Of a DNA stretch of 64,000 nucleotides, positions 7,584 through 11,740 are shown piece after piece (position 1 is the first letter of the stretch; each line of letters begins with the position of its first letter). The position numbers were made by a program, and so were the translations under genes. The notes under the pieces are model-generated. The model had not been told where the DNA came from. It made no database searches and was given only the letters and a program-made list of their open reading frames with translations. This DNA comes from Candidatus Poribacteria bacterium (lineage in GTDB: Bacteria; Poribacteria; WGA-4E; WGA-3G): NCBI GenBank assembly GCA_965197475.1, contig CBDANF010000003.1, positions 2,272,001 through 2,336,000 on the forward strand, written 5' to 3'.

Positions 7584-7874
7584 CTAACTCAAGTAAGTTG
7601 AGGCTTTTTTTTGGATGTCAAGTGCCAAGGTCAACCGCCCAACGAGTTGCTCAAGTTGGGCGATCCGCTCCGCAGAGGCATCAGACTGTTTATCAGCGGG
7701 TTCAAAGAGGGTCGCCGCTTTTTCAAGAAGCTGTCGCTTCCACTTTGAAAGTTGTTCATCGCTGAGGTTATGTCGCCGACACACTTCTGCTTGGGAACTT
7801 TCAACGCTGAGAGCCTCAAGAACAACTTCGGCTTTAAACTCGGGGGTGAAGTTTCTTCGTTTTCGTTTCGCCAT
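7584..7874 (-). CDS. IS3 transposase OrfA (HTH)
   Basis: RRNFTPEFKAEVVLE...VCRRHNL...KWK; A8G slippery run at 7604-7612 puts the -1 frame in phase with orfB. Confidence 0.9.
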   Translation of the reverse strand: MAKRKRRNFTPEFKAEVVLEALSVESSQAEVCRRHNLSDEQLSKWKRQLLEKAATLFEPADKQSDASAERIAQLEQLVGRLTLALDIQKKASTYLS

Positions 7875-8044: not shown

Positions 8045-9030
8045 CGCTCATGTCAAGAGTAAGTGCTTTTGACGAGTTTTGCTATAAAATCAACACTGAC
8101 AGCTTTTAGATTCATGACGAACTCACAGATTGCGACGTAACCGGCGAGGAACTTTTTATGAACGCCACGAAAGGGACGAAGGAAGTTTCGCAGCGTCGTC
8201 CAGGCACCTTCAATCGTCCTTGTATGGATCTCGTAAAGACCATCACCGTCTGCGTCTCTTGCCCACTCGCCATCCTTATGGAGAACAATCTCACGGGCGC
8301 GCTGAATACGGTTATAGCCACGCCAACCATCCGTATACACCGTTGAAGTCGGCAACGTCCACTGATGAACGTGTGTTGAAAGCGTCGCAGAATCGGTGTG
8401 CCGCACAACACGTAATCTCAGGAGACCGCTTTCGCGACCTTTCGTCCCAACAATAGGCGGACGATCATTGTCATAAGTCCCATGTCCCCTGCGTTTATTG
8501 CCACGCCGACGCGGCGGATCCGAAGCATCAACGTGCTTATCGCCTTTTTCACCGGCGTTTTGAAACATCTCATCTGTTTCGACTTCAGCATCAGGTAAAG
8601 CAGCTTCGGGTTGTATCTGCTCTGCCGAAGTTTGGAGTTTACGTCTTATAGAAAGAACGGTTTGACGACTTAGACCCAGTTCACACCCGAGTTGTGCACT
8701 TGAAACACCTTGACAGACACCGCGCAAAAGCAGAACGACCTGTGAGGGACGAAACTGCGTGCCAGCAAAGACCGTCCCGGTATAGAGGTTGTAGATGCTC
8801 TCACAGTGTTTGCAGCGATACACTTGTAGACCACTTGTTTCAGTCGGACGGAACTTGCGTGCCTCCGCCACGCTCGCTTGGCATTTTGGGCAACACAGCC
8901 CTTGAAGGTGGAAATGATCCAACACCCACGCTTGAGTTTTTTCTTCATCCAGGAGAGATTGTATTGGAAAGTCCATAGGTAACACGCTAACATAACTTTG
9001 AAAAAATAGCACTTACTTTTTACATGAGCC
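8045..9030 (-). mobile_element. IS1595-family element (986 bp) with 9-bp target duplication
   Basis: IRs CGCTCATGTCAAGAGTAAGTGCT / GGCTCATGTAAAAAGTAAGTGCT; AAGGGTCTC at 8036-8044 and 9031-9039. Confidence 0.92.
8053..8976 (-). CDS. IS1595-family transposase
   Basis: Zn ribbon CPKC..CKHC, HTH, VETDEMF, YTDGWRGY, HTRTIEGAW. Confidence 0.9.
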   Translation of the reverse strand: MDFPIQSLLDEEKTQAWVLDHFHLQGLCCPKCQASVAEARKFRPTETSGLQVYRCKHCESIYNLYTGTVFAGTQFRPSQVVLLLRGVCQGVSSAQLGCELGLSRQTVLSIRRKLQTSAEQIQPEAALPDAEVETDEMFQNAGEKGDKHVDASDPPRRRGNKRRGHGTYDNDRPPIVGTKGRESGLLRLRVVRHTDSATLSTHVHQWTLPTSTVYTDGWRGYNRIQRAREIVLHKDGEWARDADGDGLYEIHTRTIEGAWTTLRNFLRPFRGVHKKFLAGYVAICEFVMNLKAVSVDFIAKLVKSTYS

Positions 9031-9405
9031 AAGGGTCTCTTTCATGAAGTATATCTTAAATCAGACAAAAGGACTCCAGAATTTCATCTTTTATATAAGT
9101 TCAAAAGGTTTAGTTAATTCCTTTTCAACAAGACAATCCCATTTTTTACACTTAATCTACAATAATCCAAGATTCAGATAGAAAAATAATGAATTACCTT
9201 TGATAGCCACTTCAATTTAAACTTTTGACAAACTTTTTACACACCCTATATTTACAGAAAGGCATTCAGCTATCGGTTTCAAGGTTACAAACCTCCAGAT
9301 ATAAATACTTCAAATTAACTTGAAATATCATGAAACGTTTGGTATTATCTTTCGCAATGAGTAGTTTTGGACTTGAGAAAAATTTTAAAAAATCGCTATA
9401 AAGCC

Positions 9406-9434
9406 TTGTGTCCACTGGGTTTATATGGTATAAT
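9406..9434 (+). promoter_or_regulatory. Sigma-70-type promoter for the transposase
   Basis: TTGTGT-N17-TATAAT with extended TG. Confidence 0.55.
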
Positions 9435-9440
9435 ATAGAT

Positions 9441-9512
9441 AAGAAAATAGGGGGTTGGTAGCCCCCTAAATGAACACAAAAAGCGAGTTGCTTTTTGACG
9501 GTTCTAATCTTA
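9441..9512 (-). ncRNA. Predicted ~70-nt antisense RNA to the transposase leader
   Basis: Minus-strand TTGCTT-N18-TATAAT with extended TG (9519-9548); 7-bp hairpin 9448-9468 followed by TTTTCTT. Confidence 0.45.
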
Positions 9513-9571
9513 TCTGGTATTATATCAGAAATCCGTCAGAAAAAGCAACTCCTATTTCAAGGAGTTATCTG

Positions 9572-10453
9572 ATGGATTTGTTGAAGGTGATGGAGCGTTT
9601 TCCCGATCAAGAGAGTTGTATTTCGCATTTAGAGAAGATTCGGTGGCGAGGTAAACCTGTGTGTCCGCATTGTGAAAGCGATCATATAGGAGAACGGACA
9701 GAAACAGAAATCGGTCGTATCGGTCGTTGGAACTGCCACGAGTGCCAAGTGAGTTTCAAGGTGACGTGCAGGTCGGTGTTTCACGGGACAAAGATAGCGT
9801 TACAGAAGTGGTTTTTGGCTATTTCGTTGATAACGAATGCGAAGAAAAGTTTGTCAAGTCATCAACTTGCGCGCGATTTAGACTTGAATCAAAAGACAGC
9901 ATGGTATATCATGACTCGTATCCGTGCTGAAATGGCAAAGAAAGGTAACGTGCTACTACAAGGCATCATAGAGGCAGATGAAACTTACATCGGGGGTAAA
10001 CCTCGTAAGCCTAATAAGAAGGAAGACCACGTGCCTGCCAAGCGTGGACGTGGAACAGAGAAAGACGCTATTATCGGGGCAGTACAGCGGGGCGGGAAAG
10101 TTGTAGCACAACTCGCTAAAGATTTGACAGGACGGACTATTTTAGACTTTATCCGAAGAGTCGTCAAAGTTGAGGATTCGGAGTTGATGACCGATGAGTA
10201 TAAGGCGTATCTCGCTATCGGCAAGGAGATGAAACACCATATCATAGATCATCAAACGCAATTTGTTGAGGGTGATGTCCACACAAACACAATTGAGGGG
10301 TTTTGGAGTCTACTCAAACGAGCTTGGTATGGAAGTCATCACCACTACTGGACTGAATATACGCCCCTGTATGTAGCAGAGGCGTGCTATAAATACAACT
10401 ATAGGAGCATTGACAGTATCTTTGATAAGTTTGTTAATGAAAGTATGCGGTGA
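9572..10453 (+). CDS. IS1595-family transposase
   Basis: AGGAG RBS; CPHC..CHEC, HTH, IEADETYIGG, MTDEYKAY, HTNTIEGFWSLLKR. Confidence 0.93.
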   Translation: MDLLKVMERFPDQESCISHLEKIRWRGKPVCPHCESDHIGERTETEIGRIGRWNCHECQVSFKVTCRSVFHGTKIALQKWFLAISLITNAKKSLSSHQLARDLDLNQKTAWYIMTRIRAEMAKKGNVLLQGIIEADETYIGGKPRKPNKKEDHVPAKRGRGTEKDAIIGAVQRGGKVVAQLAKDLTGRTILDFIRRVVKVEDSELMTDEYKAYLAIGKEMKHHIIDHQTQFVEGDVHTNTIEGFWSLLKRAWYGSHHHYWTEYTPLYVAEACYKYNYRSIDSIFDKFVNESMR

Positions 10454-10462
10454 TGGACACAA

Positions 10463-10735
10463 CTAAAGGTATGCCTTATCAATCTTGTTCTTTTTGTCAT
10501 CAGGATTTGAGGGAAAATGCTGTGGAAGTTCAAAAGTTGGCTTTCCATCTTTCAGAGCATCGATCATGTCAAGAGCAAATTCCAACCTCTCATTGTCCGT
10601 GTCAAAAGGTTTCTGAATCACTACGCGAAAATTTGTATCAAGTTTTACAAGGGCGAGTTCTACAAAACTCTCTGTATGTAAGGCTAAAAGTGAAAAATCA
10701 ACAGGATCGGAAGGCGGCTTGAATATTACCCACAT
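10463..10735 (-). CDS. Hypothetical passenger protein (90 aa)
   Basis: AAGGAG RBS upstream of the ATG; lies inside the IS IRs. Confidence 0.6.
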   Translation of the reverse strand: MWVIFKPPSDPVDFSLLALHTESFVELALVKLDTNFRVVIQKPFDTDNERLEFALDMIDALKDGKPTFELPQHFPSNPDDKKNKIDKAYL

Positions 10736-10791
10736 GGGTTTAGTCTCCTTTGGGGTTAGAGGGGACAGAGTCCCCTCGTTGGTTGGAATTG

Positions 10792-11173
10792 CTAATACCC
10801 GTATGGAGAATCAGCAGCTGAAATTAAAATTATCCAAAGTCCCACCATAGTGCCAGTTCCAATAACACATCCTATTGTAGCATGTGTTATTTGGTCGTTT
10901 TTCACAAGTTTTTGATAAATGCTTGTGTAATAAGCAACATATTCTGGTGATTTTCCAAGCAATTTTTCTGGTAGTACCGTTGGTGTGACAACATACGCAA
11001 TTAACATACCGGTAACACCAAGTAGACAACCAACAGTTCCCCATATTTGAGTGTTTGCAAGTGTTGCATCACGTCGTGCATCAAATTTGCGCAGCATCAC
11101 TTGTTTGTTGTGCAAGTGTGAGATATGGCGTAGTGAATAACATCACAACCATTATAAACGACAAAGTTTTCAT
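10792..11173 (-). pseudogene. Secreted/membrane passenger protein, frameshifted near 11085
   Basis: Signal peptide MKTLSFIMVVMLFTTPYLTLA-QQ stops after 30 aa; continues in another frame as KFDARRDA...LLGKSPEYV..Y with two TM segments. Confidence 0.6.
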
Positions 11174-11243
11174 CAATGTTCCTTTTGTGAGGTAAAATGT
11201 GTATGTAGGGGATCAAAAGACCCCCTACATGTTTGCAAGCGGA

Positions 11244-11375
11244 TTATTTACACCGCTTGTGAGGTTTGACAGTTTCTTTCACCGTTGTGGCGGGACGGCG
11301 TTTGTCCGTGCCTTTGGGAAGGAACCGTCTGTCTTTGGCATCGCGTACACGCGTGCCAGTGGCTTTTTTAGCCAT
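11244..11375 (-). CDS. Small basic protein (43 aa), absent from ORF track
   Basis: GAGG RBS; MAKKATGTRVRDAKDRRFLPKGTDKRRPATTVKETVKPHKRCK*. Confidence 0.65.
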   Translation of the reverse strand: MAKKATGTRVRDAKDRRFLPKGTDKRRPATTVKETVKPHKRCK

Positions 11376-11398
11376 AGTATACCTCAACTACTCATTGC

Positions 11399-11740
11399 GA
11401 AAATAAATGGCAGCATATTGCCGTTTCTTTTCAGAGGGCAGAGTGGTGGACGGTATATCTTGATGGTGAGGTGTTAATTGATCATCCGCGACAAAATGGC
11501 AAATTATTTCCTGTTGAATCACCACTACTGCTGGGAACTGAAGAACCGCTTGATTTAAATCGTTATTATAATGGCGATATGGATGAATTCGCGATTTTTA
11601 ACCATGGGCTTTCTGAAAAAGAAATTAAAAAGATTCAGAGAGGTATTGAGGATATCTTGGCAGTTGAGCCTAATGCTAAATTGTCAACAACATGGGCAAA
11701 CCTGAAACAGAAATACAACATTCGTGGTGTGTCAAATTGA
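11399..11740 (+). pseudogene. 3' remnant of a LamG-like jelly-roll protein
   Basis: KWQHIAVSF...VYLDGE...NGDMDEFAIFNHGLSE and C-terminal AVEPNAKLSTTWANLK; 5' part lost at the IS right end. Confidence 0.75.

Follow-up and report, generated by a model that had tools for sequence, protein, structure and literature searches.

A conserved, structured leader with facing promoter sequences and rival folds precedes the transposase gene of an IS1595-family element in Candidatus Poribacteria

The element and its transposase gene

The window analysed here is a 64,000-nucleotide stretch of the genome of Candidatus Poribacteria, a sponge symbiont. It carries an insertion sequence with the following principal features.

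9353-11399, plus strand: IS1595-family element, a 2047-bp copy delimited by copy boundaries, inverted repeats and transposase Pfam domains
9353-9376, plus strand: left inverted repeat, starting CGCAATGAGTAGTTTTGGACTTGA and mirrored at the right end in full-length copies
9572-10453, plus strand: transposase gene, 293 aa, with DDE_Tnp_IS1595 (E = 8e-36) and Zn_ribbon_IS1595 (E = 1.5e-9) domains
11387-11399: remnant of the right inverted repeat, 13 nt, in the window copy

The element belongs to the IS1595 family, and its transposase carries an N-terminal zinc ribbon (PF12760, E = 1.5e-9, residues 11-59) and a DDE domain of the IS1595/ISXO2 type (PF12762, E = 8.3e-36, residues 129-276). Six other copies in the same genome are full-length at 2296 bp, and in these the inverted repeats of the two ends agree over about 24 nt; compared with them, the window copy lacks about 249 bp ahead of the right inverted repeat remnant. 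The genome holds about ten near-identical copies in addition to diverged subfamilies. An 8-bp target-site duplication is a trait of the IS1595 family; no such matching flanks were found around the window copy or the six full-length copies, where the flanks are A/T-rich.

The ATG of the transposase occupies 9572-9574 and thus falls within the interval, 9406-9574, that an initial annotation of this DNA had described as a regulatory leader. An in-frame ATG at 9470, which would open a 327-aa ORF, was considered as the start and rejected because subfamily leaders carry 1-nt indels that break the frame.

Promoter sequences on both strands

Three candidate promoters lie upstream of the gene.

9373-9402, plus strand: putative relic of an ancestral promoter (TTGAGA, 18-nt spacer, TATAAA), adjoining the left inverted repeat
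9406-9434, plus strand: the element's own predicted sense promoter (TTGTGT at 9406-9411, 17-nt spacer, extended -10 TGgTATAAT)
9519-9548, minus strand: predicted antisense promoter (TTGCTT, 18-nt spacer, extended -10 TGATATAAT)

The second and third of these had been proposed in the initial annotation, and the elements of both can be read in the sequence where it had placed them. The sense -10 hexamer lies at 9429-9434, with a start site predicted near 9441, and a regular expression for the sense extended -10 (TGnTAnnnT) matched 31 of 42 distinct leaders, a count in which the matches in two TGGTAAAAT rows (L045 and L079) may be another site. Read on the minus strand, 9519-9524 gives the -10 TATAAT; the TGA extension lies at 9525-9527, and TTGCTT, the reverse complement of 9543-9548, stands 18 nt upstream of the -10; here the start is predicted near 9512. 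This minus-strand geometry (TTGnnn, a spacer of 16-18 nt, TAnnnT) is kept in relatives, namely in 59 of 60 alignment rows, one match being on the reverse strand and really a sense promoter. Forty rows have a spacer of 18 nt, 18 rows one of 17 nt and a single row one of 16 nt, and one row has none. As sequence, two convergent promoters whose predicted transcripts would overlap at their 5' ends are present and conserved.

A consensus promoter scan listed neither the sense nor the minus-strand promoter because each -35 fits only 3 of the 6 consensus bases. Both calls rest on extended -10 elements, and a promoter with a consensus extended -10 can usually dispense with a -35. As to the sequence at 9373-9402, its -10 lacks the final T, and distant relatives carry, as judged by eye, TTGACA-17-TAGAAT at the matching place just past the left inverted repeat; that it is the relic of an ancestral promoter is something we infer only.

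Alternative folds of the leader

The leader contains the following helices and helix arms.

9426-9444, plus strand: 5' half of the fold-back helix P0ext, comprising the sense -10 and AGATAAGA
9448-9468, either strand: hairpin P1, a 5'-proximal mRNA hairpin on the plus strand and a predicted intrinsic terminator with tail UUUUCUUAUC on the minus strand
9477-9497, plus strand: local hairpin P2, CAAAAAGC / GCUUUUUG with loop GAGUU, holding the PL 5' arm in the OFF fold
9485-9501, plus strand: 5' arm of the inverted repeat PL (anti-anti-SD)
9508-9527, plus strand: 3' half of P0ext, whose complement on the minus strand includes the antisense -10 and the predicted antisense transcript start
9514-9528, plus strand: small apical hairpin P3, the near-palindrome CUGGUA UUA UAUCAG, in the MFE fold
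9529-9540, plus strand: 5' strand of P5, AAAUCCGUCAGA
9533-9551, plus strand: 3' arm of PL, overlapping the anti-SD and the P5 5' strand
9547-9566, plus strand: P4, with the anti-SD (9547-9553) paired to the SD region AGGAGUU (9560-9566)
9568-9579, plus strand: 3' strand of P5, UCUGAUGGAUUU, holding the start codon 9572-9574

Leader 9441-9600 has an MFE of -55.9 kcal/mol against -34.2 +/- 3.9 in 200 shuffles, none of which was as good (z = -5.6); all folding energies are for 37 C, and the host is an uncultured sponge symbiont. The MFE fold comprises P1, P2, P3, P4 and P5. Within it, P4 is the AACTCCT/AGGAGTT stem that had been said to bury the transposase SD, and stacked on P4 is P5, a 12-bp helix absent from the initial annotation, which buries the AUG.

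The long hairpin that had been proposed between 9485-9501 and 9533-9551, here PL, stood only in part. Its pairing is present in the sequence, with 9485-9496 perfectly complementary to 9540-9551 (inverted repeat I15) and 9497-9501 pairing with 9533-9537 past a 2-nt bulge, but it is not in the MFE fold of the window copy. With PL enforced the energy is -48.5 kcal/mol as against -55.9 for the OFF fold, a difference of 7.4, and P(PL) is 0.00; taken in isolation, PL with P3 is worth -26.6, P4 with P5 -22.7 and P0ext -19.4 kcal/mol. In these models, the ground state of the window copy is the RBS-buried fold, not PL.

P0ext had likewise not been listed before. It is a fold-back helix of about 19 bp that joins the two mirror-image promoter regions, and because its 5' half lies almost wholly upstream of the predicted start, the full helix would be open only to transcripts begun further upstream.

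Conservation and covariation

An alignment of homologous leaders had been suggested as a check on two mutually exclusive folds, one freeing the SD and one burying it, and covariation among 60 distinct leaders supports both. For the OFF structure together with P0, 87.9% of cells are paired and 33 of 43 pairs have changed on both sides (60 distinct rows); since alignments A2 and A4 had been built to fit this very fold, the counts are inflated. In slid controls 43-53% of cells were paired, with two-sided changes at 10-17 pairs. None of 500 shuffles matched the observed value on any of the five measures, and such shuffle counts are not probabilities, since many rows are related copies. Alignment A4 replaced A2, which had taken in truncated copies without a transposase and with non-homologous 3' parts. 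Examples of compensation are a change from GGGGG/CCCCC to GGGAGG/CCTCCC in P1 of related leaders, from G-C to A-U in P2 (6 rows), and from C-G to U-A in P5 (11 rows), the last coupled to a change of codon 2 from GAT to AAT.

The alignment was not fitted to PL, and its eight core pairs are 95.7% paired, four having changed on both sides, compared with 29-48% paired in slid controls; shuffles did as well in 0-1 of 500 cases for four measures and in 30 of 500 for pair types. Only these eight unambiguous pairs were counted because the alignment is unreliable in the inner stretch of PL, the inner 5 bp of which (9497-9501/9533-9537) are 44.6% paired on a plain MAFFT alignment.

P0ext was examined through duplex energies of 49 distinct pairs of 5' and 3' segments from the 60 rows, with means of -15.7 kcal/mol for cognate and -12.4 for non-cognate pairs and -5.1 +/- 2.3 for shuffled ones. 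Lineages with wholly different transcript-start sequences still match their own P0ext partner. By rank the result is modest, the cognate duplex being best or tied in 8 of 49, since nearly the same arms are common to many subfamilies.

The inverted repeats might be sites at the level of DNA, for example operator pairs bound by the transposase or by a protein of the host, or a cruciform, and several exact DNA palindromes do overlap the promoters. We consider this highly improbable: G-U intermediates are seen when the repeats are read as plus-strand RNA (six rows each at pairs 4/99 and 3/100, for example), some compensatory changes are indels that do away with bulges (L064, L068), the SD and start codon lie in P4 and P5, and the leader repeats have no sequence in common with the left inverted repeat, which is presumed to be where the transposase acts. 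Judged from sequence comparison, the left-end 220 nt of the element is a real multi-layer structured leader, conserved among related elements of the genus.

P0ext also bears on how the minus-strand promoter is to be read. Both -10 hexamers and their TG extensions pair base for base within this helix, and since it covaries strongly, complementarity alone would yield a minus-strand TGnTATAAT; the minus-strand -10 and TG complement the sense -10 and would exist under selection for the helix only, so that they could be in part a mirror image imposed by it. Taken further, this leads to a scheme of control purely in cis, in which the RBS/AUG hairpin, P0ext and PL are real, P1 is an mRNA 5' hairpin, the minus-strand 'promoter' is only the mirror image of the sense one, and a functional antisense RNA does not exist. 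The weak minus-strand -35 fits such a scheme. However, lineages with unrelated spacers are among the 59 of 60 rows in which TTGnnn stands at a distance of 16-18 nt from that -10, a TG persists on the minus strand of at least 7 leaders that have no sense TG and in which the helix is mismatched at this point, the absence of a strong -35 matters little for a consensus extended -10, and a terminator-like sequence follows downstream in every distinct leader (see below). We therefore regard purely cis control as the less probable course, with perhaps the best claim among the alternatives to a regulatory antisense RNA.

Predicted effect of the transcript start

In a series of folds of the growing transcript from the element's own start, PL is the MFE structure at transcript ends 9552-9567 and the OFF fold takes over from 9575 onward; with starts further upstream PL is absent at every transcript end. 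P0ext forms in silico only with starts upstream of 9426, and there it excludes PL, giving a silencing fold confined to read-through transcripts. For the window copy, then, PL is predicted only in the nascent own-promoter transcript, not in read-through.

The same tendency is seen among the 42 distinct leaders. P(PL) exceeds 0.5 in 29 of them when the own-promoter transcript is nascent and in 14 when it is full length, against 12 and 3, respectively, for read-through; in 13 of the 42, PL is unfavoured even in the nascent own-promoter transcript. Mean SD pairing is 0.55 (own, nascent), 0.74 (own, full length), 0.75 (read-through, nascent) and 0.85 (read-through, full length). With PL at a disadvantage of 7.4 kcal/mol to the OFF fold in the window copy, the ON state would depend on a proposed kinetic window. 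The models suggest that the transposase most likely stays off in every transcript but those begun at the element's own promoter.

The predicted antisense RNA

9442-9512, minus strand: predicted antisense RNA of about 71 nt, its ends placed from the geometry of promoter and terminator

The minus-strand transcript had been proposed to end near 9441 at a hairpin followed by a U-tract, and a consensus scan independently found the same terminator (stem 9468-9448, minus strand, tail TTTTCTTATC). The pattern of a G/C-rich hairpin and T-rich tail about 45-70 nt downstream on the minus strand was matched in 42 of 42 distinct leaders, cut mid-stem in the distant L044:2447 and with a U-poor tail in some lineages (e.g. 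L055, L096). The predicted RNA forms two stem-loops (-23.7 kcal/mol), its strand folds with z = -5.1, and the own-promoter mRNA is fully complementary to it over its first ~70 nt. From these sequence features, an antisense RNA of about 70 nt probably exists.

This RNA would cover the 5' arm of PL and leave 48 nt between itself and the SD, and it could therefore influence translation only by an indirect route. When its target was masked in folding, mean predicted SD pairing over the 42 distinct leaders rose from 0.74 to 0.88. The earlier proposal that antisense pairing switches translation off through the PL arm has partial support from these predictions; in the window copy, however, the RBS is already buried at equilibrium, and since that fold is the ground state the antisense RNA is not needed there for switching off. 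In this copy the models leave room for it to act solely on nascent or trapped transcripts, and any effect on translation would be an indirect one.

The antisense RNA and its promoter could also be real and work otherwise, through interference between convergent promoters or through cleavage and decay of a 70-bp duplex, with no refolding of the leader. The predicted starts face each other across ~71 nt, the antisense terminator ends at the sense +1, and burial of the RBS at equilibrium without antisense RNA in the window copy means that a structural switch would add little. Nevertheless we think it unlikely that refolding plays no part, slightly more so than purely cis control, since covariation of PL calls for a role of its 5' arm, the same arm is what the antisense RNA covers, masking the target raises predicted SD pairing where PL competes, and interference or decay does not exclude refolding.

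Proposed mechanism

The reading that we favour, with middling confidence, is that the leader is a multi-layer riboregulator that limits translation of the transposase by means of an RBS-burying ground state, a window for PL, fold-back and an antisense RNA. It is built on the sequence elements, their conservation, the covariation of both folds and the predicted energies. In the ground state a compound hairpin, P4 inside P5, would hide the SD and AUG while the PL 5' arm is parked in P2. In a transcript begun near 9441 PL would form first, and the SD and AUG would briefly emerge free because PL occupies the anti-SD and half of P5. A read-through or relic-promoter transcript would instead carry 9426-9444, which could pair with 9508-9527 before the PL 3' arm is made; PL would then be topologically excluded and the RBS buried from the outset, a proposed form of fold-back inhibition. 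From these sequences and models we infer both start sites and the antisense RNA, as well as the kinetic window and all effects on translation. The convergent extended -10 promoter and the terminator at 9468-9448 would yield the ~71-nt antisense RNA, whose pairing over the PL 5' arm would block PL and favour the buried state, and which could, in addition, set off decay or hinder transcription by the opposing promoter.

A stronger version of this mechanism is put forward tentatively. The leader might be a three-input RNA device in which the facing promoters double as fold-back arms, the own transcript is briefly ON and upstream transcripts are OFF, and the ~70-nt antisense RNA senses copy number and represses indirectly by removing the anti-anti-SD arm. 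The antisense target (the GAGUUGCUUUU region) is nearly invariant across diverged subfamilies that share the genome, so a single antisense pool could police roughly 35 or more copies.

Comparison with known systems

How antisense RNA and mRNA structure control transposase synthesis is understood for only a few elements, among them IS10, IS200 and ISPpu9. In IS10/Tn10, fold-back inhibition silences read-through transcripts, and the present leader has in common with it a helix that is open only to longer transcripts and would guard against outside transcription. It also shares facing promoters at the transposase end and a small structured antisense RNA, both predicted in our case. According to PMC4513863, RNA-OUT of IS10 forms 35 bp with RNA-IN across its RBS and thereby keeps the ribosome off directly. 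By contrast, the predicted antisense RNA at 9442-9512 avoids the RBS and AUG (SD 9560-9566, AUG 9572), again by 48 nt from the SD; the fold-back helix here would exclude the anti-sequestering hairpin PL without pairing to the RBS, and both promoters are themselves its arms.

The transposase of IS200 is an HUH enzyme of the IS200/IS605 family, a different kind from the one considered here. PMC4513863 describes three independent layers for IS200, namely a left-end terminator hairpin that is bidirectional and stops incoming transcription, an SD-hiding 5'UTR hairpin, and the cis-encoded antisense art200, which covers the SD and first three codons and blocks 30S binding. Our element likewise has three predicted layers at its left end, namely a terminator hairpin, an antisense RNA and an SD-sequestering 5'UTR stem-loop (P4/P5, in the MFE fold and covarying). 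Unlike art200, however, the predicted antisense RNA reaches neither the SD nor the first codons, and unlike IS200 the U-tract is found on the minus strand only, incoming transcripts being neutralised, by prediction, through folding.

A further comparison is with ISPpu9 of Pseudomonas putida and its RNAs Asr9 and Ssr9, the latter sponge-like. In PMC8450116 Asr9 is described as antisense to the part of the 5'UTR that precedes the RBS and is proposed to act indirectly, by changing an RBS-hiding structure; Asr9 is reported to raise translation by aiding unfolding (PMC8450116). Our predicted antisense RNA also lies on the 5'UTR upstream of the RBS and would act through mRNA structure, but its predicted effect is the opposite, the anti-sequestering arm being removed, and the IS family differs. 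In the full-text literature, IS1595 papers being judged by title and the start of the abstract, no comparable control was found for transposases of IS1595 or Poribacteria. By analogy, then, the leader appears to be control of the IS10/IS200/ISPpu9 style in a new form that we did not find reported for IS1595.

If the proposal is correct, the leader would be a case of indirect, structure-mediated antisense repression and of an economical arrangement in which the same DNA serves as promoter and encodes a regulatory RNA helix, and it would suggest how dozens of copies might be kept silent in the IS-rich genomes of sponge symbionts. Since the leader is short and has ordinary sigma-70-type signals, it should be testable in E. 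coli reporters.

Distribution of the leader

An Rfam scan of 9300-11450 (E <= 1) gave only two sub-threshold chance matches, both outside the leader. A search of 36 further genomes of the genus showed leader DNA in 34. A search with a leader model matched 22 of 55 related loci, all of them from Poribacteria records; it gave no match among loci from other phyla in that set and missed the distant Poribacteria loci L111, L120, L150, L157 and L159. A MITE-like origin of the module at 9426-9527 was considered and rejected, as all 30 BLAST matches in this genome lie within copies of the element and no free-standing copies were seen.

Four sponge metatranscriptome runs contain the element, as contigs without strand or ends and with DNA carry-over possible. 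Word depth over the leader is about 2-13 in three of these runs (contigs), and there is none in run X4. Depth is higher over 9900-11386 in the metatranscriptome contigs, a difference that is not interpretable.

Sixteen distant loci were folded and inspected by eye. In most of them, though not all, the left repeat and a TTGACA-type promoter lie within about 100 nt of the start codon, and because the promoter is mostly so close to the start codon in distant loci, the long leader appears to be specific to one Poribacteria lineage of the element. Several of the 16 have an SD-containing hairpin.

The element and its copies

The putative regulatory leader lies at the left end of an IS1595-family insertion sequence, in which ORF 9572-10453 encodes a 293-aa protein with an IS1595-type DDE domain (E = 8e-36) and an IS1595 zinc ribbon (E = 1.5e-9). 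Candidatus Poribacteria are sponge symbionts, and the source genome (5.7 Mb, 3 contigs) contains, by comparison of copies, about ten near-identical elements along with diverged subfamilies of roughly 83%, 70% and 68% identity. The same comparison places the left end at 9353, starting CGCAATGAGTAG. Six full-length copies are each 2296 bp and end in inverted repeats some 24 nt long; relative to these (for example L002) the window copy (9353-11399, 2047 bp) lacks about 249 bp adjoining what is left of its right repeat, 13 nt at 11387-11399. It is a deletion variant, and possibly an immobile one because its right inverted repeat is reduced to those 13 nt. No target-site duplication was found in the seven copies examined (window copy and six full-length), and their flanks are A/T-rich.

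Promoters and predicted folds of the leader

The initial annotation described convergent promoters, a minus-strand hairpin with a U-tract, a long inverted repeat and an anti-SD/SD stem; all are present where it had placed them, and its observation is confirmed and extended by two helices that it overlooked, P5 and P0ext.

Features of the leader (P1-P5 from the minimum-free-energy fold of 9441-9600)
9406-9434, plus strand: sense promoter (TTGTGT, 17 nt, TGgTATAAT)
9548 down to 9519, minus strand: promoter (TTGCTT, 18 nt, TGATATAAT)
9468-9448, minus strand: hairpin stem with U-tract, tail TTTTCTTATC, found independently by scan
9485-9501/9533-9551, plus strand: long inverted repeat (long hairpin PL), 12-bp core perfect
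9448-9456/9460-9468, plus strand: P1
9477-9484/9490-9497, plus strand: P2, local hairpin using the PL 5' arm
P3, plus strand: small apical hairpin
9547-9553/9560-9566, plus strand: P4, anti-SD/SD stem
9529-9540/9568-9579, plus strand: P5, 12 bp, stacked around P4, buries the AUG
9572-9574, plus strand: start codon, within the interval initially annotated

Compared with shuffled controls, the leader has a much more stable fold (z = -5.6; z = -5.1 for the predicted antisense strand), and no Rfam family matches it. PL is absent from the minimum-free-energy fold of 9441-9600, the OFF fold, in which SD and AUG are buried; enforcing PL, which frees the SD, gives -48.5 versus -55.9 kcal/mol, a cost of 7.4 kcal/mol. 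In the second long-range helix, P0ext, 9426-9444 (sense extended -10 plus AGATAAGA) pairs with 9508-9527 (duplex -19.4 kcal/mol). Read as its reverse complement, 9508-9527 consists of the antisense extended -10 and, again, AGATAAGA. This makes the two promoters mirror images of each other, and jointly they are predicted to form this fold-back helix.

No site in the region fits the consensus better than a second plus-strand promoter-like site at 9495-9523 (TTGACG, 17 nt, TGgTATTAT; 10/12, plus TG), which is kept only in subfamilies retaining GACGG. Transcription from there would begin near 9530, and the RNA would fold directly into the RBS-burying hairpin.

Conservation and covariation

Leader DNA occurs in 34 of the 36 other genomes of the genus searched; among 24 genomes representing three further families of the order, one has it. 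We gathered 42 distinct intact leaders, or 60 distinct rows once more divergent Poribacteria copies were added. The OFF structure with the 8-bp P0 core was tested on a model-fitted alignment of the 60 rows. Paired cells make up 87.9%, 33 of 43 pairs are changed on both sides, and 0/500 shuffles attain any of five measures; the alignment leans towards the tested structure, the rows are related, and the shuffle counts are not probabilities. Slid controls are 43-53% paired with 10-17 doubly changed pairs. Compensation is seen in P1 (GGGGG/CCCCC to GGGAGG/CCTCCC), in P2 (G-C to A-U in 6 rows) and in P5 (C-G to U-A in 11 rows, along with codon 2 GAT to AAT). In P0ext the transcript-start sequences of divergent lineages are wholly different, each matching its own partner, and bulge-removing indels are also compensated. 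Across 49 distinct 5'/3' segment pairs from the 60 rows, the cognate duplex mean is -15.7 kcal/mol, against -12.4 for non-cognate pairs and -5.1 +/- 2.3 kcal/mol for shuffled partners.

The 60-row alignment had not been fitted to PL, which was tested on it in its eight core pairs only. This core is 95.7% paired with four pairs doubly changed; shuffles reach it 0-1 times in 500 for four measures and 30 times in 500 for pair types, and slid controls are 29-48% paired. The changes lie in the P2 loop and the anti-SD, positions not expected to be constrained by P2 or by the -35 box. The other stem initially proposed, the anti-SD stem, lies within the covarying OFF structure. Covariation in both the OFF helices and PL thus indicates that the two mutually exclusive folds are under selection.

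A proposed switch by transcript origin

The growing transcript was folded stepwise from its own start (~9441) and from starts upstream of 9426 (read-through). From its own start, PL is the best fold for transcript ends 9552 to 9567, when the SD has emerged and is free, and the OFF fold prevails from end 9575. From the upstream starts, P0ext has formed by 9520-9530, P4 closes once the SD is out, and PL never appears in the series.

Predicted pairing by transcript class (leaders with P(PL) > 0.5; mean SD pairing)
Own start, nascent: 29/42; 0.55
Own start, full length: 14/42; 0.74
Read-through, nascent: 12/42; 0.75
Read-through, full length: 3/42; 0.85
Antisense target masked, across leaders: mean SD pairing 0.88

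The predicted fold series and leader counts fit a translation opportunity open to own-promoter transcripts only. Such transcripts alone would gain a brief chance of translation from the leader, which would silence transcription coming from outside and could also be closed by an RNA covering the PL 5' arm. A plus-strand promoter-like site at 9320-9348 (TTGAAA, 17 nt, TATTAT, with TG) lies just beyond the left inverted repeat and faces the element. Read-in transcripts could originate there, which makes read-in transcription a realistic threat for the window copy.

The predicted antisense RNA

The predicted antisense RNA runs from ~9512 to ~9442 (71 nt, two stem-loops, -23.7 kcal/mol) and probably exists. 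In its favour, a -35-like TTGnnn and a TAnnnT -10 are spaced 16-18 nt apart on the minus strand in 59 of 60 rows (spacer 18 nt in 40, 17 in 18, 16 in 1); in one of the 59 the match is really a sense promoter on the opposite strand, and the row without a match is one defective copy. This geometry is kept even where the spacer sequence is unrelated, the TG extension survives in seven or more leaders that have no TG in the sense promoter, and a pattern of hairpin plus T-rich tail follows downstream in 42/42 leaders. Against it, the minus-strand -10 with TG would exist anyway, because it mirrors the sense -10, its pairing partner in a covarying helix; the -35 is weak and some terminator tails are U-poor. 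The element is present in four RNA-library runs, as contigs in which neither strand nor ends are visible and DNA is possibly included.

The initial annotation had this RNA bind the 5' arm of PL, free the anti-SD and switch translation off. That interpretation is partly supported: the exclusive folds covary and masking the target raises predicted SD pairing, but PL carries the energy cost noted for the enforced fold. As the main mode of action the indirect mechanism is doubtful, and transcriptional interference and duplex-triggered decay are live alternatives.

Many copies in other genomes of the genus (L036, L041, L049, L050, L052, L054, L057-L060) have the left end and leader and no transposase gene. 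They keep ~200-213 nt, to about the antisense-promoter -35, followed by unrelated sequence, and if expressed could still provide antisense RNA in trans.

Distribution and comparison with known systems

IS10, which is subject to fold-back inhibition, has facing promoters and a small antisense RNA, as in the layout of the IS1595 leader. With IS200 the leader shares the combination of a terminator, a hairpin hiding the SD and an antisense RNA, predicted here and named art200 in IS200 (PMC4513863). The antisense RNAs of IS10 and IS200 cover the RBS, whereas the one predicted here ends 48 nt before it. The nearest precedent for an indirect, structure-mediated effect is Asr9 of ISPpu9, reported to raise translation (PMC8450116); the sign predicted here is opposite. 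In openly searchable full text (subscription-only papers and ISfinder entries lie outside it) no such control is described for IS1595 elements or Poribacteria. Judged by sequence, conservation, covariation and thermodynamic prediction only, the leader would be a variant form of transposase riboregulation.

Of 55 related loci, the leader model picked out 22, every one in a Poribacteria record, and the long leader appears to be a lineage-specific elaboration. Transposases 45-60% identical (L114-L160) occur in MAGs titled Chloroflexota, Dehalococcoidia, Alphaproteobacteria, Entotheonella, Latescibacterota, Binatia, Gemmatimonadota and others; these copies are without the long leader. Of 16 distant loci folded, most, not all, have by eye a short leader and a TTGACA-type promoter next to the IR, and several an SD-containing hairpin. 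If the MAGs named above share the sponge habitat, the presence of such transposases in them would suggest element exchange among co-resident microbes.

Neighbouring and internal features

Three minus-strand ORFs within the element (10463-10735, 10792-11115 and 11244-11387; 90, 107 and 47 aa) are convergent with the transposase gene and may be passenger genes. None has a Pfam match; by eye, the 107-aa product looks membrane-spanning. Their transcription would cross the transposase gene in the antisense direction and first meet the reverse complement of P4, a terminator-like hairpin on the minus strand (9567-9546).

The region around the window copy is a cluster of insertion sequences. ORF 8053-9012 (minus strand, 319 aa) is a second, distant IS1595-type transposase, since it matches the IS1595 DDE domain (E = 2e-12), and ORF 7584-7874 (minus strand, 96 aa) resembles, by eye only, the first ORF of an IS3-type element. 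Elsewhere, at C3:2473603-2476084 (L010, L017; C3 is a contig of the source genome), a copy of the 83% subfamily abuts a window-subfamily copy truncated at the equivalent of 10695, which looks like one element inserted in another. Copy L011 (C3:2815828-2817653) has lost an internal stretch equivalent to 9425-9639. The deletion starts precisely where the fold-back helix begins and takes out the entire regulatory module together with the start codon.
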